Notes: generated from the sequence alone by a model not told the origin. Shown: positions 3,995-60,328, numbered from the stretch's first letter. The stretch is 64,000 nt of DNA from an uncultured SAR86 cluster bacterium (GCA_902531245.1 CACADH010000003.1:15394-79393); one strand, 5' to 3'. Numbers and translations are program-made.

Positions 3995-4029
3995 AATCCC
4001 TATTAATTTAAATTAGTAGGGATTTTTTT
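3995..4029 (+). terminator. intrinsic terminator after recA
   Basis: Stem AATCCCTATTAAT / ATTAGTAGGGATT running into a T7 tract. Confidence 0.75.
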
Positions 4030-5208
4030 ATGGCAGAGAAAGCATATATTGTAGAGGCAGTGAGAACCGCTGGTGGTAAGAGAGACGGAAGGTTAAGTTT
4101 ATGGCATCCAGCAGATCTTGGAGCAAAGGTTTTAGATGAGCTAGTAACAAGATTAGATATCGATCCTGTTCTTGTAGATGATGTTATTTTTGGTTGTGTT
4201 GATCAGGTTGGAGCACAGTCAGGAAACGTAGCAAGAAATGCAGTTCTGTCATCGTCATTTCCTGAATCCGTTCCTGGAACTTCTGTTGATAGACAATGCG
4301 GTTCATCTCAACAAGCAATTCATTTCGCAATTCAAGCTGTAATGTCTGGTACTCAAGATATTGTTATTGGTGGAGGAGTAGAAGTCATGTCCATGGTACC
4401 TATCGGTGCAGCAGTTACAGATGGGTATAATGCAGGCCATGGGTTGCCATTTGATTCTGATGGTATGAAAGAAAGATATCCTAGTATATTCTTTTCACAA
4501 TTTACAGGTGCAGAACTAGTAGCAGATAAATGGAATCTTTCTCGTGAAGATTTAGATCAATTCGCTATGGAAAGTCATCAAAAAGCTGCTCATGCAACAG
4601 AATCAAAATACTTTGATAAAGAAATTTTACCTGTTGAAGGTAAAAATGCTGAGGGTATTAACGATTTAGTGATGGCAGATGAGGGTATTAGATTTGATGC
4701 TAGTCTTGATAAATTAGCAGGATTGAAGCCAGTAACTGAGGGTGGGGTTATAACTGCTGGAAATGCAAGCCAAATCACTGATGGTGCTGCTGCTGTTGTT
4801 ATATGCAATGATGCAGGATTGAAAAAGATTCAATCAAATCCAAGAGCTGAAATTGTATCAATTTCTGTTGTAGGAGATGATCCTGTCTTTATGTTAACCG
4901 GACCAATACCAGCATCAAAGAAAGCTCTAGAAACTGCCAACTTATCTATTGATGATATGGATTTGTATGAAGTAAACGAAGCTTTCGCTCCAGTCCCACT
5001 TGCTTGGGCTGATGATTTAAAAGCTGATAAATCAAAACTTAATGTAAATGGCGGTGCAATGGCTCTAGGACATCCGCTTGGAGCAACCGGAGCAAAGCTT
5101 ATGACAACCCTTTTACATGAAATGGAGAGAAGAGAATCCACATATGGTCTTCAGGCTATATGCGAGGGAGGCGGAACGGCAAATGCAACAATAATTAAGA
5201 GATTATAA
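4030..5208 (+). CDS. acetyl-CoA C-acyltransferase (thiolase)
   Basis: RQCGSS catalytic Cys, NEAFA, GHPLGATG and ICEGGG motifs. Confidence 0.95.
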   Translation: MAEKAYIVEAVRTAGGKRDGRLSLWHPADLGAKVLDELVTRLDIDPVLVDDVIFGCVDQVGAQSGNVARNAVLSSSFPESVPGTSVDRQCGSSQQAIHFAIQAVMSGTQDIVIGGGVEVMSMVPIGAAVTDGYNAGHGLPFDSDGMKERYPSIFFSQFTGAELVADKWNLSREDLDQFAMESHQKAAHATESKYFDKEILPVEGKNAEGINDLVMADEGIRFDASLDKLAGLKPVTEGGVITAGNASQITDGAAAVVICNDAGLKKIQSNPRAEIVSISVVGDDPVFMLTGPIPASKKALETANLSIDDMDLYEVNEAFAPVPLAWADDLKADKSKLNVNGGAMALGHPLGATGAKLMTTLLHEMERRESTYGLQAICEGGGTANATIIKRL

Positions 5209-5225
5209 AAAACTTTACTAAATTA

Positions 5226-5951
5226 TTAATCTTTTTCCCAATCAAATTTAGGCAATTCTTTAAAAAGATTTCTTAGCCCTTCAGACCACTTGCTAGATAA
5301 ATCTGAAAAAAATGGTGTTTTGAATTGAAGATGTTCTTCAAGAGAAATCTGGATAGAATCTTTTTTATAGACTATTAAATCTATTGGAGGACCAACAGTG
5401 AGATCACTCTTCATAGTTGAATCAAATGACACTAAAGCACATCGGGCTGCATCACCTAGAGAAGTTTCTTTTCTTATAAGTCTATCAAGAATTGGTTTTC
5501 CGTACTTAGTCTCACCAAGTTGGAAAAAGGGTTTTATCTCAGAGGCATGTATATAATTACCAACAGGATAAACCATCAATAGAGCAGGTTCTTGTCCACT
5601 AATTTGACCACCAATAAGAAAATTTGATCCAAGATGAGTATTAATTGAAATCCCATCTGTTTTTGAGTGATTTAATGAAATTTGTCCTACATACTCTGCA
5701 ATTTCATCAAAATTTTTGCATAAATTTAAGCTAGTTAAAGGATTAGATGAATCAATATCACTTTCTAAGGTCTTAAAAACATGTTGTGATGTTGATAGGT
5801 TTCCTGAAGTAACAATAATTATTGATCTATCCCCAACTGAATAAGTAAACATCTTTTTGTATGTGGAAACATTATCCAATCCAGCATTTGTTCTTGAATC
5901 AGACACCATAACAATGCCATCATTCATTTTCATTCCTACGCAGTAAGTCAT
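5226..5951 (-). CDS. Anbu proteasome-type (Ntn) protease
   Basis: MTYCVG with N-terminal catalytic Thr, SDSRTNAG.D, SGNLSTSQ, QLGETKYGKPILDR, STMKSDLTVGPP. Confidence 0.92.
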   Translation of the reverse strand: MTYCVGMKMNDGIVMVSDSRTNAGLDNVSTYKKMFTYSVGDRSIIIVTSGNLSTSQHVFKTLESDIDSSNPLTSLNLCKNFDEIAEYVGQISLNHSKTDGISINTHLGSNFLIGGQISGQEPALLMVYPVGNYIHASEIKPFFQLGETKYGKPILDRLIRKETSLGDAARCALVSFDSTMKSDLTVGPPIDLIVYKKDSIQISLEEHLQFKTPFFSDLSSKWSEGLRNLFKELPKFDWEKD

Positions 5952-6055
5952 ATTTAAATTTAATTTTTATGAATGCCTTATTCTATATTTATATAATAAA
6001 AAAAGACATAAAATCAATTATCTTTCTTGCTTCGATTTGCTAAAGTGAATTTAAA

Positions 6056-6104
6056 CGTTCATCTTTTGATAAAAGACGGAAGTAGGTGAGAACCGAAGGA
6101 ACGC
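6056..6104 (+). ncRNA. glutamine riboswitch (glnA RNA motif) aptamer
   Basis: CGTTC-A-TCTTTT(GAT)AAAAGA-CGGAAGTA-GGT(GAGA)ACC-GAAG-GAACG-C. P1, P2, the CGGAAGUA junction/E-loop and P3 match the glnA motif, with a compensatory P1 change (CGUUC/GAACG instead of CGUUG/CAACG). Confidence 0.85.
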
Positions 6105-6152
6105 ATTTCTTTATCTCATCTGTTTTTTATTAATTGATTATTACTAGCAATT

Positions 6153-7586
6153 ATGAAGACAAATAAATATAAGATAAATAATTTTTACGATGAATATCTA
6201 AATAATAAAAATAATCCCCGTAAGAGTTTTGAAGCCTCATTTAACTTTTTTGATCTTTTAAGTGCAAAAAAAAAGAAACTATTGTCAAAAGTTCGTGATT
6301 CAATAATACGTTCTATGGGAATTACATTTCGTGTTTATAACAATAATGAATTAATTGATAGAGAATGGCCACTAGATTTAATTCCAAGAATAATTAAAGA
6401 AAAAGAATGGAATAATGTTAAAGACGGATTAGTTCAAAGAATTAAGGCAATAAATTTATTTATACATGACGTATACCATAAACAAGAATTTTTAAATGAA
6501 AACCCAATTTTAAAATCATTAATTTTAGATTCCCCAAATTTCTTAGAAGAATGTAAAGGAATCACCCCTAAAAATAAGATATGGGCAAACATATCAGGCA
6601 CAGACCTAATTAAAGACCATCTTGGTAAGTTTTATGTTTTAGAAGATAATCTTAGAGTTCCTTCAGGTGTTGCATACATGCTTGAAAATAGGAATGTTAT
6701 GAAAAAAGTCGTAACGGATCTTTTTAGCAAATATCAAGTATCACCGATTGATGATTATACATTCCAATTATACAAATGCTTATCTAATGCTAGTTACTCA
6801 AAAGATAAGAAAAAAACAATTGTTATTCTAAGTCCAGGCGTATTTAATTCTGCATATTTTGAGCATGCATATCTGGCGCAACAAATGGGAATCGATCTTG
6901 TTGAATCATCAGATTTAATTTTGTCTAAAGATAATTATGTTTATATAAAAACAATATCAGGACGAAAAAAAGTTGATGTTATTTACAGAAGGGTAAATGA
7001 TGATTATCTTGATCCAACATTATGGATCAAAGACTCTTCATTAGGATTAGCAGGAGTCATAAACTCCTGGAAAGAAAAAAAAGTTGCTATTGTAAATGCT
7101 CCTGGATCAGGCGTTGCTGATGATAAAGCAGTGTATGCATTTGTTCCCAAGATGATAGAGTTCTTTTTAAATGAAAAACCAAAACTCAATCAAGTAAAAA
7201 CCTATTTATGCGCATTTGAAAAGGATAGGAAATTTGTTTTAGATAATATTAATAAGCTTGTTCTTAAGCCTGTAAATGAATCTGGAGGTTATGGAATTCT
7301 AATAGGACCAAATGCTACAAAAAAAGAATTAAATGATTACAAATTAAAAATTATCTCAAATCCAAGAAATTTTGTGGCACAGCCACTTATTAAGCTTTCT
7401 ACAAGTCCAACTCTAATTAAAACAAGCATACAGCCAAGACATATTGATTTAAGACCATTCATATTGTCTGGAAATGGTACTTTTGTAACGAATGGTGGAT
7501 TAACCAGAGTTGCACTTGAAAAAGGCTCTACTATTGTTAATTCCTCTCAAGGCGGCGGCAGTAAAGATACTTGGGTTGTTAACTAA
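6153..7586 (+). CDS. circularly permuted type 2 ATP-grasp protein
   Basis: GITF, WPLDLIPRII, VLEDNLRVPSGVAYMLENR, NSAYFEHAYLA, VDVIYRR, GGLTRVAL, VNSSQGGGSKDTWV. Confidence 0.93.
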   Translation: MKTNKYKINNFYDEYLNNKNNPRKSFEASFNFFDLLSAKKKKLLSKVRDSIIRSMGITFRVYNNNELIDREWPLDLIPRIIKEKEWNNVKDGLVQRIKAINLFIHDVYHKQEFLNENPILKSLILDSPNFLEECKGITPKNKIWANISGTDLIKDHLGKFYVLEDNLRVPSGVAYMLENRNVMKKVVTDLFSKYQVSPIDDYTFQLYKCLSNASYSKDKKKTIVILSPGVFNSAYFEHAYLAQQMGIDLVESSDLILSKDNYVYIKTISGRKKVDVIYRRVNDDYLDPTLWIKDSSLGLAGVINSWKEKKVAIVNAPGSGVADDKAVYAFVPKMIEFFLNEKPKLNQVKTYLCAFEKDRKFVLDNINKLVLKPVNESGGYGILIGPNATKKELNDYKLKIISNPRNFVAQPLIKLSTSPTLIKTSIQPRHIDLRPFILSGNGTFVTNGGLTRVALEKGSTIVNSSQGGGSKDTWVVN

Positions 7587-8471
7587 ATGCTTTCAAGTAC
7601 TGCTGAAAAAACTTATTGGCTTTCAAGATATATTGAGAGAATTGAAAATACATCAAGACTAATAATTGTTAATTCAGATTTGTTATTAGATATTCCTCAT
7701 GATGAATCAGATGACCTGAAACATTTAATTCAGATAACAGGACATCTAAGTGATTTTAAGAAAAAAAATACAAAAGAAAATGTTTTTTACTTTTTAATTC
7801 AAGATAAAAAAAATCCGTCTTCAATTAAATTTTCAATTGAAATGGCAAAAATGAATTCAAGATATCTTTTAACAATGTTGCCGAAATCTGCTTGGGAGCA
7901 ATTTAATAATCTTTATCTTGATTTTAATAGTAAAAATAAACCTTATAGCGAAGATCTTTATCAAATAATTAGAAATTCTCAAAGATTTTTTGCAATTATT
8001 TCTGATGGAATGCAAAGAAATGATGTATTTAATTTTATTAAGCTCGGTAGATTTATTGAAAGAGCTGATATGTTATCAAGAATAATTGAAGACCAGATTT
8101 TAAGAAAAGAGAACCATGTAAATAAATACTATCAAAACTTACAATGGAGTAGTGTTTTAAGATCTGTAAATGGATTCGAATCTTTCAAAACAATCAATAA
8201 AGATAATTTAAGTCAAGAAATTGTTCTTAAATTTTTGATTATGGAAAAATTATTTCCGAGATCTTTAAAATATTGTGTTGAAAAGCTATTAGAGGTGCAA
8301 AAATATTTACCAAAATCTTCGTTAGTAAAAAAAGATATTAGTATACTTTTAGATGGCTTTTCTAATGATGAATTATTTCGAAATGATAAAAAAATGTTAA
8401 AGCTGCTGGATAATTTTCAATTAGGTCTTATTAATGTGGATAAAGCAATAAATGATAGATTTTTTAATTAA
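7587..8471 (+). CDS. alpha-E domain protein
   Basis: MLSSTAEKTYWLSRYIERIENTSR, a second ER motif (LGRFIERAD) and FPRSL; starts immediately after the ATP-grasp stop. Confidence 0.9.
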   Translation: MLSSTAEKTYWLSRYIERIENTSRLIIVNSDLLLDIPHDESDDLKHLIQITGHLSDFKKKNTKENVFYFLIQDKKNPSSIKFSIEMAKMNSRYLLTMLPKSAWEQFNNLYLDFNSKNKPYSEDLYQIIRNSQRFFAIISDGMQRNDVFNFIKLGRFIERADMLSRIIEDQILRKENHVNKYYQNLQWSSVLRSVNGFESFKTINKDNLSQEIVLKFLIMEKLFPRSLKYCVEKLLEVQKYLPKSSLVKKDISILLDGFSNDELFRNDKKMLKLLDNFQLGLINVDKAINDRFFN

Positions 8472-9745
8472 TTTTTAAAAAAATCTAATATTGTTCTAAT
8501 GTCATCAATCGGGTTTATTGAACTATCTCCATTTCTACCAACTAATTCAATTTCTTTATTCTCAAGATATTTTTTACCAATAATTATATTTAAAGGAATT
8601 CCAATAAGCTCAGAATCGCTCATTTTTGCGCCATAGCCATCTTTTCTGTCATCCAAAAGGACATCGTAACCCATATTAGACAACTCATTGTATAGTTCCA
8701 AAGAAGCAGATGCTATCTTCTTATCTTTATCAAAGCCAATTGAGATGATATTTATATCAAAAGGAGCAATACTGTGTGGCCAAATTATTCCCTTATCATC
8801 AAAGTTTTGCTCTATCGCTGCTGCAACTAATCTTGATACACCAATACCATAGCAGCCCATATACAATGTGGAAGCTTTTCCTTCAGCATTTAAGACATTA
8901 GCTTTCATAGATTCTGCATAAAGTTTTCCAAGTTTAAAAATATGCCCAACCTCAATTCCTTTTTTAATTTGTATTGTTCCATTACCATCTGGCGAAGGTT
9001 TCCCCTCAAGTGAGCTAATATCCTCTCCATCTTTTAAAAGAAGTTCGGTATTTATTGCAAACTCTGATGAATCACTAATAGCAATTGTGTCTTCACCATT
9101 TTCAGCTAGAACATGAAATTCTTCAGAACTATCTCCACCAATTGAACCAGAATCTGCTGCAGATATTTTGTATTGGAGTCCAATTCTTTCTAAAACTTTT
9201 TTATAAGTTTCTCTCATTGCTAGGTATGTTTCTTGAAGAGATTCTTCATCAATATTAAAACTATATGAATCTTTCATTAAAAATTCTCTGCCTCTCATGA
9301 TTCCATATCTAGGCCGAACCTCATCTCTAAATTTTGTCTGAATTTGATAAATATTTAGAGGAAGTTCTTTATAACTTTTAACATTGTCTCTAATTATGTC
9401 TGTAATAACTTCTTCGTGAGTAGGACCAAGACAAAAATCTCTTTCATGTCTATCTTGAATTCTTAATAATTCTGGACCCATTTTTTCCCATCTTTTTGTT
9501 TCATCCCATAGTTCTTTAGGTTGAACCATTGGCATGAATACTTCTTGAGCACCAGAAGCATCCATTTCTTCTCTGACAATATTTTCTATCTTTTTGAGAA
9601 CTTTTAATCCTAAAGGCAACCATGTATAAATACCAGATGCTACTTTTCTTACCATTCCAGATCTAAGCATAAGTTTATGACTTATAACTTCGGCTTCTTG
9701 TGGGGCATCCTTTAAAGTTGGAACTAGTAGCTTTGAAAATAACAT
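8468..9745 (-). CDS. proS: proline--tRNA ligase (short, editing domain absent)
   Basis: LGPTHEE, QTKFRDEVRPRYG, REFLMKDSYSF, GIEVGHIF, MGCYGIGVSR; only 425 aa. Confidence 0.97.
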   Translation of the reverse strand: MLFSKLLVPTLKDAPQEAEVISHKLMLRSGMVRKVASGIYTWLPLGLKVLKKIENIVREEMDASGAQEVFMPMVQPKELWDETKRWEKMGPELLRIQDRHERDFCLGPTHEEVITDIIRDNVKSYKELPLNIYQIQTKFRDEVRPRYGIMRGREFLMKDSYSFNIDEESLQETYLAMRETYKKVLERIGLQYKISAADSGSIGGDSSEEFHVLAENGEDTIAISDSSEFAINTELLLKDGEDISSLEGKPSPDGNGTIQIKKGIEVGHIFKLGKLYAESMKANVLNAEGKASTLYMGCYGIGVSRLVAAAIEQNFDDKGIIWPHSIAPFDINIISIGFDKDKKIASASLELYNELSNMGYDVLLDDRKDGYGAKMSDSELIGIPLNIIIGKKYLENKEIELVGRNGDSSINPIDDIRTILDFFKN

Positions 9746-9776
9746 AGTTTATAATTTTATCTTTTTTTGAAGACTT

Positions 9777-10070
9777 ATGCCGATTTATGACTATAAATGT
9801 TCCAAATGTGGACATCAAATGGAAGTTATGCAGAAGATCAGTGATGATCCTAAAACAGTATGTCCAAAATGTGGTAATAAAAGTTTAAAGAAACTTATAT
9901 CAGCACCATCATTTAGATTAAAGGGAAGTGGTTGGTATGAAACTGACTTTAAAACAGGTAAAAAGAAGAATATTTCATCAAATGAATCGTCAAAAAGTGA
10001 TAAATCAATAGAAACTTCAAAAACAAACTCCAAGAAAGACTCTAAACAAGATAAAATTAAGGATAAATAG
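9777..10070 (+). CDS. FmdB family zinc-ribbon protein
   Basis: MPIYDYKC..C...CP.C...FRLKGSGWYETDF; usual position before aspS. Confidence 0.9.
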   Translation: MPIYDYKCSKCGHQMEVMQKISDDPKTVCPKCGNKSLKKLISAPSFRLKGSGWYETDFKTGKKKNISSNESSKSDKSIETSKTNSKKDSKQDKIKDK

Positions 10071-10079
10071 GGAATAATC

Positions 10080-11846
10080 ATGAAATCTCATTATTGTGGC
10101 GAAATAACATCCTCGAATCTTAAAGAAGAAGTAATGATTTGTGGCTGGGTTCATAGAAGAAGGGATCATGGAGGAGTAATATTTTTAGACATTAGAGACA
10201 TAAGAGGTATATGTCAGGCAGTCGTCAATCCAGATAATGCAAAATCATTTCAATTAGCAGAATCAATTAGGAATGAATATGTGGTGCAAATTAAAGGAAG
10301 TGTAAGAAAAAGATTAGAAGGAACTATTAATAAAAATATGCATACAGGCGAAATTGAGATTGAAGTAGGCGACTTAACAATTCTAAGCAAAGCCAAAACT
10401 CCAGTATTTCCAATTGATGAATACCAAGAGGTTAACGAAGATGTAAGACTTAAAAATCGAGTTTTAGATTTAAGAAGGCCTGAGATGAACGAAAGAATTA
10501 TAACCAGATCTAAAATAACTTCTTTAATAAGGAACTTTTTAGATAAAAATGATTTCCATGAAATTGAAACTCCTATATTAACCAAGGCAACACCAGAAGG
10601 AGCTAGGGATTATATTCTTCCAAGTAGAGTTCAACCAGGAAGCTTCTATGCTCTCCCACAGTCACCTCAACTATTTAAACAACTTCTTATGATAGGAGGT
10701 TTAGATAAATACTATCAAATAGCTAGATGTTTTAGGGATGAAGACTTAAGAGCAGACAGACAACCAGAGTTTACACAAATTGATATCGAAGCTTCTTTTA
10801 TAGATCAAGAAGAAATAATGAGTATTAGTGAAAAAATGATAAAAAATATCATTAAAGATTTTTGTGGAGATAAGCTAGAAAAATTTGAAGTTATCGATTG
10901 GCATGATGCAATGCGAGATTATGGATGTGATAAACCTGACTTAAGAATACCGTTAAGTTTGGTTGAAATTTCTGAGCAGGTAAAAGATGAAGAATTTAAA
11001 GTATTTTCTGAACCTGCATCTAAAAAAGGATCCAGAGTAGTTGCTTTAAAAGTACCTAATGGTAATTCATTATCAAGAGGACAAATAGATGATTACACTA
11101 AATTTGTATCCAAACTTGGAGCCAAAGGTTTGGCATATATAAAGATTAATGATGTAAAGGATTTAGAAAATGGCATCCAGTCTCCAATTCTTAAATTTTT
11201 AAAACCACAAACAGTAGAAAACATAATTAAGTCTTTAGATATTTCAACAGATGACTTAATTTTCTTTGGTGCAGGAAAAGAATCAGTTGTTAATTTATCA
11301 ATGAGTTCTTTGATTAAGAAACTTGGTGAAGACCTTGATTTATATTCTAAAAAATGGGCGCCTTGCTGGGTGGTTAACTTTCCGATGTTTGAAATTAATA
11401 ACGAAGGTAATCTAACACCTTTACATCACCCATTTACATTACCAAAATGTTCAATCAAAGGGATACAAGATAACCCTGATGAGGCAATCGCATACGCATA
11501 TGATGTTGTTTTAAACGGATATGAAATAGGGGGAGGGTCTTTAAGAATATTTGATACTTTAATGCAAAAAGCTATTTTTGATGTTTTAAATATCTCAAAA
11601 GATGAAGCAGAAAGTAAATTTGGATTTTTATTAAAAGCGCTTTCCTCAGGATGTCCACCTCATGGAGGTATAGCATTTGGTCTTGATAGAATTGTTATGC
11701 TTGTAACTGATACTTCAAATATAAGAGACGTCATTGCTTTTCCAAAAACACAAAGTGCGTCATGTTTGCTAACCGATGCGCCAAGTAAAGTAGATAAAGA
11801 TCAACTCGATGAGTTAAAAATAATAAGTACTCATAAGGAAGAATAA
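10080..11846 (+). CDS. aspS: aspartate--tRNA ligase
   Basis: RRRDHGGVIF, TPEGARDY, LPQSPQLFKQ, FRDEDLRADRQPEFTQID, PPHGGIAFGLDR. The HGG loop suggests the non-discriminating Asp/Asn type. Confidence 0.98.
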   Translation: MKSHYCGEITSSNLKEEVMICGWVHRRRDHGGVIFLDIRDIRGICQAVVNPDNAKSFQLAESIRNEYVVQIKGSVRKRLEGTINKNMHTGEIEIEVGDLTILSKAKTPVFPIDEYQEVNEDVRLKNRVLDLRRPEMNERIITRSKITSLIRNFLDKNDFHEIETPILTKATPEGARDYILPSRVQPGSFYALPQSPQLFKQLLMIGGLDKYYQIARCFRDEDLRADRQPEFTQIDIEASFIDQEEIMSISEKMIKNIIKDFCGDKLEKFEVIDWHDAMRDYGCDKPDLRIPLSLVEISEQVKDEEFKVFSEPASKKGSRVVALKVPNGNSLSRGQIDDYTKFVSKLGAKGLAYIKINDVKDLENGIQSPILKFLKPQTVENIIKSLDISTDDLIFFGAGKESVVNLSMSSLIKKLGEDLDLYSKKWAPCWVVNFPMFEINNEGNLTPLHHPFTLPKCSIKGIQDNPDEAIAYAYDVVLNGYEIGGGSLRIFDTLMQKAIFDVLNISKDEAESKFGFLLKALSSGCPPHGGIAFGLDRIVMLVTDTSNIRDVIAFPKTQSASCLLTDAPSKVDKDQLDELKIISTHKEE

Positions 11847-28037: not shown

Positions 28038-29117
28038 TTGTCTAAAAAAAGAAATCTTTTAGGTTGCTCATTAGAGTCACTCGAAGGTTTTTTTATCAAC
28101 CTACAAGAACCAAAATTTAGAGCAAAACAATTATTAAAATGGATACATCAAAAAGGCGTATTGGATTTTAATTTAATGACAGATTTCAATAAAGACTTAA
28201 GAAAAAAATTATTATCCGTTGCATTAATAGAACCACCAAAAATTTATCAAGAATATATATCAGAAGAGGGTACAATTAAATATCTTATTCAACTTACATC
28301 TGGATCAATGGTAGAGATGGTTATGATTCCAGAAAAAAATAGAAGAACATTATGTGTATCATCTCAGGCAGGTTGTGCACTTCAATGTACTTTCTGCGCT
28401 ACTGGAGCACAAGGATTTGATCAAAATCTTGGAAGTCATGAGATTATTGGACAGCTTTGGCTGGCTAATTTTTATAAAAACAATTCAAAACCTATTACCA
28501 ATGTAGTTTTTATGGGTATGGGAGAGCCTTTATTGAATTATGATGCTGTTATTGAATCAGCTAAGATAATGAAAGACCAACTATCGTATGGATTATCAAG
28601 AAAAAGAATAACAATCAGTACTTCAGGTATAGTCCCTAATATAAATAAATTACCTAAGGATATAGATGTTTCTTTAGCTATTTCCCTCCATGCTGCAGAA
28701 GACAAACTAAGAAACGAAATAGTTCCAATAAATAATAAATATCCTATTAAATCTTTAATCCAATCATGCAAAGACTATTTAGATTACTTTCAAAATAAAA
28801 GAAACATAACGATTGAATATATATTAATCGATGGAGTAAATGATTCGATTGAACATGCTACAAAACTTACGAAACTTTTATCAGATATCTCTTGCAAGAT
28901 AAATCTTATACCTTTCAACAGCTTTCCAGGATCAAATTATAAAAGGCCGAGCAATAATAAGATTGTAGCATTTAAAAAATATCTGATGAGCAAAGGATTA
29001 ATTACAACATTAAGAGTCACTAGAGGTGATGGTGTAGATGCAGCTTGTGGTCAACTAGTGGGAAATCTTTCAAGCTCTATAAAAGGAAAAAATTTAATTA
29101 CTCATAAATTAATATAA
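28038..29117 (+). CDS. rlmN: 23S rRNA/tRNA m2A methyltransferase RlmN
   Basis: CVSSQAGCALQCTFC radical SAM motif, MGMGEPL, DAACGQL. Confidence 0.96.
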   Translation: MSKKRNLLGCSLESLEGFFINLQEPKFRAKQLLKWIHQKGVLDFNLMTDFNKDLRKKLLSVALIEPPKIYQEYISEEGTIKYLIQLTSGSMVEMVMIPEKNRRTLCVSSQAGCALQCTFCATGAQGFDQNLGSHEIIGQLWLANFYKNNSKPITNVVFMGMGEPLLNYDAVIESAKIMKDQLSYGLSRKRITISTSGIVPNINKLPKDIDVSLAISLHAAEDKLRNEIVPINNKYPIKSLIQSCKDYLDYFQNKRNITIEYILIDGVNDSIEHATKLTKLLSDISCKINLIPFNSFPGSNYKRPSNNKIVAFKKYLMSKGLITTLRVTRGDGVDAACGQLVGNLSSSIKGKNLITHKLI

Positions 29118-29881
29118 TGAATAAAGAATTTAAATCAGCTAGCTCTGTAAAGATAGGTAAAAAATTTAAAGAAAGAAGGATTGAATTGGGGCATTCAATT
29201 GAAGAGGTTTCAAAGATATTATTTGTTAATAAGACTCATTTGACTGCAATTGAGGAAGGAAATTATGCCATCTTTCCAAGTGAAGCATTTGCAAAAGCTT
29301 ATTTCAATAAGTATTTAAATTTTCTAGAAATACATTGTGAATTCCCAGGTGTTTTCGAACAAAAAACAGAAAAAAAACATAAAAGAATATTTAAAGAATT
29401 CTCCTTTGATGACTCATTCGATAATAATATTAAGTATTATTTATCTATATTTCTTGTATTTTCTGCAATTTTACTAGGAATATATTTCTTTTCTAATGAA
29501 GAAGTTGTCTCTAAAAATGAAATAAATAATATTGAAGAGATCAAGAAGGAAGAAATTAAATTAGATGACATATTTAAAAGTGTAGAAGATGCTAATCAGA
29601 CAGAAGATAAATCAAACTTAATAACGAAAGGTATACAAGATAATAATTTATTATTAGAGTTTTATGGTGAATGCTGGTTAGAGTTATATGTTAATGATGA
29701 GCTCATAGAAGCAAAACTGTTTTTTGATAACGAAAAATATCTAAGAAATATCAAGATGCCATTTAAAATTATTATAGGAAATGCCGATTTTGTTAAAGGG
29801 TCATATAATAATACTGAGATTGATTTTATTACCAATGCGAATAGACTAACTAAAGTAAATATTATTGTTTTTAATGAGTAA
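29117..29881 (+). CDS. rodZ: RodZ-like HTH/TM protein
   Basis: N-terminal HTH, single TM, C-terminal CWLE..D domain; lies between rlmN and ispG. Confidence 0.8.
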
Positions 29882-32259: not shown

Positions 32260-32904
32260 ATGAATAATGTTTACGAAAATAATATGAGATTTGTTCCTTT
32301 TTTAAAATTTTTAGATAAGTACAAAAAAATTATTGTAGCCATTTTTATTTTAGTCATATCAGCCATCGCTTTTTTTATTATTTCTAATCAAATTGAAAAA
32401 CAAAATAATGAAGAGGCATCTGTTTTATATAGTGAATGGCTTGAAGAACTTTCTAATGAAAATCCTAATTTGGATAATTTAAATACTATTCTAAATCAAC
32501 TTTTAGAAGATTATAAAAATACTGGATACACTAAACTTGCGCTTCTCAGCAAAGCAAATATGGATGCTAAATCAAATAAATTTAATCAAGCATTAGAGAA
32601 TTTCAATATTCTTATTGATCTAACAAATGGATTTGGAGGTAATAAAATTTTTAATAAAATGGCAAGAGTTAGTGCTGCTCGAATATTGCTTGCACTAGAT
32701 CGTTATGAAGAAGCTCTTAAAATGGTTGACACTTATTCTTCCTCTGGCACTAATGGTTATATCCATGAATTAACTGGCGATATTTTGGTTAAACAGAATA
32801 AGAACAATCTAGCTATTACACAATATGAATTAGCAGCTGCTAAATATTCTGATGAAACATCAAAGTCAATTATATCAATGAAGATTGCAAATATTGGGAC
32901 TTAA
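32260..32904 (+). CDS. yfgM: YfgM family TPR membrane protein
   Basis: Single TM plus TPR-like helices (ELTGDIL); hisS-yfgM-bamB-der synteny. Confidence 0.8.
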   Translation: MNNVYENNMRFVPFLKFLDKYKKIIVAIFILVISAIAFFIISNQIEKQNNEEASVLYSEWLEELSNENPNLDNLNTILNQLLEDYKNTGYTKLALLSKANMDAKSNKFNQALENFNILIDLTNGFGGNKIFNKMARVSAARILLALDRYEEALKMVDTYSSSGTNGYIHELTGDILVKQNKNNLAITQYELAAAKYSDETSKSIISMKIANIGT

Positions 32905-60279: not shown

Positions 60280-60303
60280 ATCTTTAATACTATTTAAAAA
60301 ATT

Positions 60304-60328
60304 TGGGGCATTTTGCCCCATTTTTTTT
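60304..60328 (+). terminator. intrinsic terminator after groEL
   Basis: TGGGGCA-TTT-TGCCCCA followed by T8. Confidence 0.9.

Follow-up and report, generated by a model that had tools for sequence, protein, structure and literature searches.

A glutamine-I aptamer lies in the 5' leader of an ATP-grasp/Alpha-E gene pair in the 64-kb stretch of DNA analyzed here (the window), and its 3' half can fold with the sequence immediately downstream into a terminator-like hairpin that is incompatible with the folded aptamer. We read this leader as a kinetically controlled glutamine-ON antitermination switch, a reading to which we would assign a probability of roughly 0.58. Because the hairpin carrying the putative stop signal forms only when the sensor is unfolded, glutamine probably turns the genes on. 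This expression platform is a variant undescribed for the glutamine-I family within the literature that we searched. No terminator-type glutamine riboswitch is described in that literature, and earlier papers on the class may mention one.

The identity of the aptamer is clear from the Rfam covariance model RF01739 (glutamine-I, glnA RNA), which matched 6054-6107 over the full model (1-53) with 65.2 bits (gathering score 35) and an E value of 3.4e-12. The aptamer assumed in an earlier note on this DNA is therefore a bona fide glutamine-I element. In the Rfam alignment all of the highly conserved (upper-case) consensus positions are matched, no non-standard pairs are flagged, and the three-stem junction is present with its conserved junction sequences. 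Folding of 6054-6107 with ViennaRNA gave P1, P3 and a variant of P2. This aptamer is the single riboswitch match to Rfam within the 64-kb window, and a blastn search of 6050-6135 against phage records returned chance-level matches only (E 0.7 or worse). Its 3' end stands 46 nt before the ATP-grasp start codon (6153) on the same strand, as expected for a 5' leader. A possible extended -10 element was read by eye just upstream of it and would put the start of transcription near 6053, just 5' of the aptamer; a promoter scan of 5000-11000 listed no promoter for the riboswitch leader. The positions of these and the other features are collected in Table 1.

Table 1. Features of the leader, its hairpin and its surroundings, in window coordinates
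Feature	Position	Strand	Basis
Terminator-like site after recA	3997-4022	+	Hairpin of -11.8 to -12.4, T7
Anbu (proteasome beta-like) gene	5226-5951	-	PDB Anbu chains 6.6e-69 to 6.2e-53; Pfam Proteasome 2.9e-10
Possible extended -10 promoter element (TG-n-TAAAGT)	6038-6046	+	Sequence read by eye
Glutamine-I (glnA RNA, RF01739) aptamer	6054-6107	+	Rfam covariance model
P1	6056-6060/6099-6103	+	Rfam alignment
P2	6062-6066/6072-6076; with a possible extra pair, 6062-6067/6071-6076	+	Rfam alignment
P3	6085-6087/6092-6094	+	Rfam alignment
Terminator-like (anti-aptamer) hairpin	6083-6122	+	ViennaRNA folding, shuffle controls
Hairpin, lower stem	6083-6091/6114-6122	+	Part of the hairpin
Hairpin, upper stem	6095-6101/6106-6112	+	Part of the hairpin
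Hairpin, internal loop	6092-6094 and 6113	+	Part of the hairpin
Hairpin, terminal loop (CGCA)	6102-6105	+	Part of the hairpin
U6 tract	6123-6128	+	Directly 3' of the hairpin stem
Circularly permuted ATP-grasp protein, 477 aa, first downstream gene	6153-7586	+	Pfam CP_ATPgrasp_2 1.2e-145
Alpha-E domain protein, second gene	7587-8471	+	Pfam Alpha-E 7.3e-64
Bidirectional terminator-like site after groEL	60303-60321	Both	Scan for hairpins with a T run

The hairpin had been proposed in the earlier note from two stretches of complementarity, and a base-by-base check found both of them. AGGTGAGA (6084-6091) and TCTCATCT (6114-6121) form 8 pairs, 1 of them G-U, and GAAGGAA (6095-6101) and TTTCTTT (6106-6112) form 7 pairs, 2 of them G-U; the CGCA loop, G6122 and the T6 run stand exactly where they had been placed, and U6083-G6122 adds a pair to the original list. 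When 6083-6128 was folded with ViennaRNA, precisely this hairpin was obtained at -13.9 kcal/mol (z -3.17), an energy matched by 1 of 200 shuffles. Estimates for 6083-6122 range from -13.3 to -13.9 kcal/mol, and the originally listed pairs evaluated alone give -13.1 kcal/mol, to which the upper stem adds only -2.8. The stem is rich in A-U and G-U pairs, as the note had cautioned, with 4 G-C, 3 G-U and 8 A-U pairs. A stable stem-loop followed immediately by a U tract, the criterion for an intrinsic terminator, is found at 6083-6128, and T runs of six or more start at 0.21% of the positions in the 64-kb window. A simple consensus terminator scan of 5000-11000 did not list the hairpin; compared with that simple consensus, its stem has 4 G-C among 15-16 pairs and is interrupted by an internal loop. 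In the MFE structure of the whole leader the base of the stem shifts register and 6066-6080 pairs with 6119-6133, which brings the U tract into pairing with P2's A-rich 3' strand. Complementarity to this strand is a possible second reason for the existence of the U tract.

Hairpin and aptamer compete for the same nucleotides. They share 6085-6087 (P3) and 6099-6101 (P1), and since the hairpin takes P3 and three of the five P1 pairs, the aptamer is excluded when the hairpin forms, which bears out the mutual exclusion that the note had claimed. The hairpin is also the more stable of the two, the aptamer helices amounting to -8.0 kcal/mol versus -14.5 kcal/mol for P2 plus the hairpin. We then have the order in which they appear: in a cotranscriptional type of folding, with transcripts growing from 6054, the MFE structure is the aptamer as far as 6110 and changes to the hairpin between 6112 and 6122, the hairpin's upper stem being first seen at 6112 and the full hairpin by 6120-6122. 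Over 6054-6200 the free MFE is -27.5 kcal/mol versus -18.0 kcal/mol with the aptamer locked. This gap of about 9.5 kcal/mol is too big for an equilibrium switch and would fit a kinetic decision taken co-transcriptionally.

The mechanism that we propose would run as follows. Transcription would start near 6053, and the aptamer would be complete when about 6105 has been transcribed. The next 17 nt (6106-6122), predicted to be complementary to the aptamer's own 3' half, would, without glutamine, invade P1 and P3 and produce a 16-pair hairpin ending at the U6 tract; RNA polymerase would then stop near 6126-6130, releasing a short transcript of about 75 nt. Binding of glutamine would keep the junction, P1 and P3 locked through a decision window of about 20 nt, and the locked aptamer would block nucleation of the hairpin and allow read-through into the ATP-grasp/Alpha-E pair. 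By analogy, this ON polarity agrees with the known behavior of the class: according to the available text of Klahn et al. 2018 (PMC6212724), the glutamine-I element of Synechocystis gifB works as an ON switch, and glnA-RNA elements appear to down-regulate genes upon nitrogen depletion in that of Weinberg et al. 2010 (PMC2864571).

The first downstream gene encodes an ATP-grasp protein, as the earlier note had stated, and its product also matches PDB 3n6x ('putative glutathionylspermidine synthase') at 9.7e-140; the Alpha-E start (7587) directly abuts its stop codon. On the other side of the leader, the divergent Anbu gene is a functional neighbour that lies outside the control of the riboswitch and shares no operon with the ATP-grasp/Alpha-E pair. 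Because the leader is located between divergent genes, a terminator-like site on its + strand cannot serve to end an upstream gene. An Anbu/ATP-grasp/Alpha-E/transglutaminase operon has been described, and its function called open, in the portion of Fuchs et al. 2017 (PMC5666114) available to us. In the window, the transglutaminase gene is absent after Alpha-E, and the next gene is proS, on the opposite strand. The G+C content of the window is 30-33%, and its other genes include ybgC-tolQRAB-pal-ybgF, iscR-iscS, rlmN, ispG, hisS, bamB, der, sdhAB-sucAB-lpd-sucCD and groEL. Between 28038 and 35466, rlmN, ispG, hisS, bamB and der follow one another in this order, with unannotated ORFs at 29117-29878 and 32260-32901. 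We take this to be the gene order of E. coli, and it is the sole basis on which we speak of gammaproteobacterial-type gene content.

A pattern scan of a genome collection yielded at least 108 glutamine-I loci. The 80 titled loci listed comprise 33 from cyanobacteria and 47 from Alpha-, Gamma- or unclassified Proteobacteria (MAGs and single-cell genomes), from which it follows that the class is widespread among genomes of marine Proteobacteria. The 2018 statement that it is exclusive to cyanobacteria (PMC6212724) stands in contrast to this; the available parts of that paper place glutamine-I in cyanobacterial genomes and other gene associations only in environmental sequence. Elsewhere, RF01739 is mentioned for SAR86 and for phages that infect SAR11 and OM43 (PMC12379486 and PMC9004378, in the portions available). 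No close relative of the window was found among the matches listed, tblastx and blastn gave nothing closer, and the comparative leaders that were fetched contained one analogue of its design, locus L079.

The ATP-grasp/Alpha-E pair recurs directly downstream of the aptamer in at least 10 loci (10 of the 108 listed), with 44-47% identity, the best among the matches listed. It stands behind tandem aptamers at L006, L037, L059, L060, L065 and L072 and behind single aptamers at L009, L018, L021 and L067, and no Anbu gene was found in the 2-kb flanks of these 10 loci. The literature searched describes no association of ATP-grasp/Alpha-E with glutamine-I, and earlier gene lists may mention one; the genes named in the available text of Weinberg et al. 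2010 (PMC2864571) are those for PII, GS, GOGAT and amt. In a Pfam scan of 24 downstream proteins, chosen from 49 long ORFs of proteobacterial loci, 7 were ammonium transporters, 9 glutamine synthetase or GS-like, 3 Gcw_chp, 1 the large subunit of glutamate synthase, 2 gltD-like and 2 ATP-grasp proteins. The Gcw_chp (PF09694) proteins are of outer-membrane type, and glutamine-I lies upstream of them at L003, L007 and L029, the last with three aptamers.

A hairpin of -8 or better that overlaps the aptamer and precedes a U-rich run is present in six of the 110 leaders listed, and among these 110 only L079 (-13.6) and the window (-13.3) fall below -11; the remaining four, at -8.0 to -10.9, have irregular folds. 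L079 comes from an alphaproteobacterial single-cell genome contig and is a singlet, Rfam-confirmed aptamer (64 bits) upstream of amt. Like the window, it folds back over the whole 3' half of the aptamer with the loop at the conserved GCA after P1, and its hairpin (-13.6 to -13.7) is followed by a U-rich run. It differs in its downstream gene, in a U run interrupted by C, and in having 55 nt more and an SD before the start codon. The significance of its fold-back is weak (20 of 500 shuffles were as good, about 0.04), since the aptamer core is purine-rich and readily finds pairing partners in a pyrimidine-rich tail.

Three other leaders of the same gene pair, those of L009, L018 and L021, likewise fold back onto the aptamer core (duplex energies of -13.4 to -16.7), here without a U tract; for L018 the MFE favours another fold. 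About 70 nt after the aptamer, on the minus strand of these loci, the tail of these three leaders can pair with a purine-rich stretch abutting the start codon, a pairing that is not individually significant (p 0.07-0.24). Judged by the predicted folds, the arrangement looks like a translational design with three states in which glutamine would turn the genes OFF. When the five leaders that fold back (window, L079, L009, L018 and L021) were aligned and run through RNAalifold, the consensus was weak, at -2.04 kcal/mol with 2 of 13 pairs compensatory, and since the fold-back registers differ among the five this consensus is unusable as proof. At L067 (1999-2060) the ATP-grasp start codon, with an N-terminus that aligns with that of L009, lies 3 nt past the P1 3' strand, so that the sole SD-like purine run is the conserved GAAGGAA of the aptamer itself; the sequence suggests that the folded aptamer may occlude the ribosome site.

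Tandem leaders are organized in another manner. SAR11-like tandem leaders have a conserved linker and trailer in common, as seen for example in L064, L027, L057, L070, L098, L106 and L046 (glnA) and in L041, L074 and L101 (amt). The SAR11-like tandem glnA leaders carry a separate small hairpin with a U run 40-65 nt after aptamer 2; this hairpin is kept while its sequence varies, and these hairpins with U runs may possibly be terminators too. In tandem leaders of the Gammaproteobacteria/Porticoccaceae type (L015, L035, L044 and L056), the short linker behind aptamer 1 and the P3 stem-loop of aptamer 2 are complementary, and their predicted pairing suggests that the two aptamers might cross-talk. 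The SAR11-like tandem arrangements in the available portions of Weinberg et al. 2010 (PMC2864571) and Sherlock et al. 2022 (PMC9481103) have the aptamer class in common with the window, and share the ATP-grasp/Alpha-E operon. Such arrangements contain two aptamers with a conserved linker and trailer, and any hairpin with a U run is set apart from the aptamers, whereas the window has a single aptamer and an overlapping hairpin.

How often such a hairpin arises by chance was assessed in several ways. With the aptamer held fixed and 6106-6152 dinucleotide-shuffled, none of 1000 shuffles reached the native -13.3 for an aptamer-overlapping hairpin followed by a T run, and under a looser rule for the U tail 2 of 500 shuffles equalled it. 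Each of the 495 natural T-run segments that the two strands of the window contain was also grafted at the native offset; 2 of them reached the native energy, one being the native segment itself, which leaves 1 of the 494 others. When the window was searched on both strands for hairpins of -9 or better with a T-rich run behind them, 16 sites came up, 7 of them intergenic. The hairpin at 6083-6122 is the strongest of these 7, equalling or exceeding the energy of each of the other 6. With the sites after recA and groEL serving as the genome's own terminator yardstick, the hairpin and its T6 run are of the same strength and geometry as terminator-like sites of this genome. Furthermore, of the 102 distinct leaders listed, the window has the strongest complementarity between the aptamer core and the 40 nt that follow (-17.3), with a z of -2.29 and a p of 0.025 for this duplex in mononucleotide shuffles. 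By these computational controls the complementarity is not random.

These figures bear on the possibility that the aptamer is functional and the hairpin with its T6 run incidental, the read-out lying elsewhere, in Rho, in RNase access or in some uncaptured structure. A purine-rich conserved core in a genome of 31% G+C readily meets U/C-rich partners, as seen in the composition-preserving shuffles that equal the analogous L079 leader; the core-to-tail z of the window is itself modest, the consensus terminator scan missed the site, and the mode of action of glutamine-I is described as unclear in the available text of PMC6212724. Such a chance origin is nevertheless hard to reconcile with the rarity of the hairpin and T6 foot among shuffles and natural segments, with its rank as the strongest intergenic terminator-like site of the window, and with its location, a 5' leader flanked by divergent genes, in which a constitutive terminator would serve no purpose. 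We regard it as unlikely. We hold it very improbable that the leader is a constitutive attenuator or a decaying relic, with an unresponsive aptamer and a hairpin that merely dampens expression or ends a short ncRNA. The alternative fold is indeed far more stable than the aptamer helices, but every highly conserved Rfam position is matched, and the recurrence of the same gene pair behind glutamine-I aptamers in at least 10 loci of other genomes argues for maintained regulation.

The remaining alternative reverses the sign of the switch. The hairpin would be an anti-aptamer, or anti-sequestrator, rather than a terminator: glutamine would lock the aptamer, and the freed pyrimidine/U tail would pair with the A-rich start region and block initiation, while without glutamine the aptamer core would hold the tail and leave the start site open. 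In the aptamer-locked fold the U tract does pair with the first codons, and the start region (6138-6165) is less open, with a mean unpaired probability of 0.38 locked versus 0.59 free. L009, L018 and L021, in front of the same operon, share the fold-back hairpin, lack the U tract, and also have a second hairpin that adjoins the start codon and reuses the tail. Anbu is reported to be induced in nitrogen-limited Pseudomonas putida in the available part of Fuchs et al. 2017 (PMC5666114), and this induction, together with the OFF-looking alphaproteobacterial leaders, hints by analogy at a polarity opposite to the one that we propose. However, the complementarity of the tail to the start region in the window (6131-6180) is no better than chance (-6.1 kcal/mol, equalled by 60% of shuffles), the energy between the two states is too large for equilibrium switching, and a stable hairpin followed by U6 should terminate in the very state that would have to be ON. 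We consider an OFF switch of this kind quite unlikely. Related read-outs were rejected on the same folds: translational sequestration by the freed tail, given that chance-level complementarity; a translational read-out by aptamer locking, which leaves the start region unopened; and an OFF design with a second downstream terminator, since 6054-6200 with the aptamer locked shows weak, branched A-U pairing only and no compact second hairpin with a U run. Nor is there an SD-like motif in the 20 nt before 6153; an SD-like 4-mer precedes only 19 of the 69 ORFs in the window.

Set beside known systems, the antitermination switch that we propose combines a familiar sensor with another output. With the cyanobacterial gifB leader it has in common the aptamer family, the three-stem junction and all of the conserved junction nucleotides, and its predicted polarity would likewise be ON with glutamine. 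Cyanobacterial leaders among the listed loci carry a short helix directly behind P1 in which the SD region just upstream of the start codon is paired. The window leader has neither an SD nor this P1-adjacent anti-SD helix, and has the fold-back hairpin and U6 tract instead; moreover, its host has gammaproteobacterial-type gene content, and its targets are ATP-grasp and Alpha-E rather than gifB. Its logic is closer to that of the pbuE (ydhL) adenine riboswitch of B. subtilis, a transcriptional ON switch in which the 3' part of the aptamer is the 5' strand of the terminator. In both, antitermination is, or in the window would be, the work of the aptamer itself, which when free is less stable than the terminator, and the decision falls within a short co-transcriptional window. 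The leader described here differs in aptamer class and ligand, and its stem, which is predicted, is long, interrupted and rich in A-U and G-U pairs. As to glutamine riboswitches and nitrogen-responsive genes at large, unmasking of the SD in cyanobacteria, a translational mechanism, is the only one so far postulated for glutamine-I in the accessible text of PMC6212724. Glutamine-II is treated as a translational ON switch in that of Huang et al. 2019 (PMC6698751). A Pelagibacter Amt protein was found in nitrogen-replete cells only, with unchanged mRNA, in the available part of Smith et al. 2013 (PMC3870248).

A terminator-coupled glutamine riboswitch would be directly assayable by single-round transcription, without genetics in the uncultured host, and such an assay would bear on the polarity, on the effective glutamine concentration and on how a low-affinity aptamer behaves under kinetic control. 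It appears that this operon has been joined to the one aptamer class through read-outs that differ between lineages, possibly with opposite signs: the window would have a terminator, L009-like leaders a hairpin at the start site, and L067 a start codon that abuts the aptamer. We tentatively suggest, at somewhat less than even odds, that the window holds the first glutamine-I riboswitch to use kinetic transcription antitermination, in an AT-rich marine non-cyanobacterium with gammaproteobacterial-type gene content, and that, together with the loci of at least 10 other leaders, it places the Anbu-associated ATP-grasp/Alpha-E amidoligase system in a glutamine-sensing regulon of marine proteobacteria. 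The presence of ATP-grasp/Alpha-E behind glutamine-I aptamers ties this Anbu-type amidoligase system to glutamine and nitrogen status. Nitrogen status would thereby offer a physiological handle on the circularly permuted ATP-grasp/Alpha-E/Anbu system, the role and substrates of which are called open in the available portion of PMC5666114.
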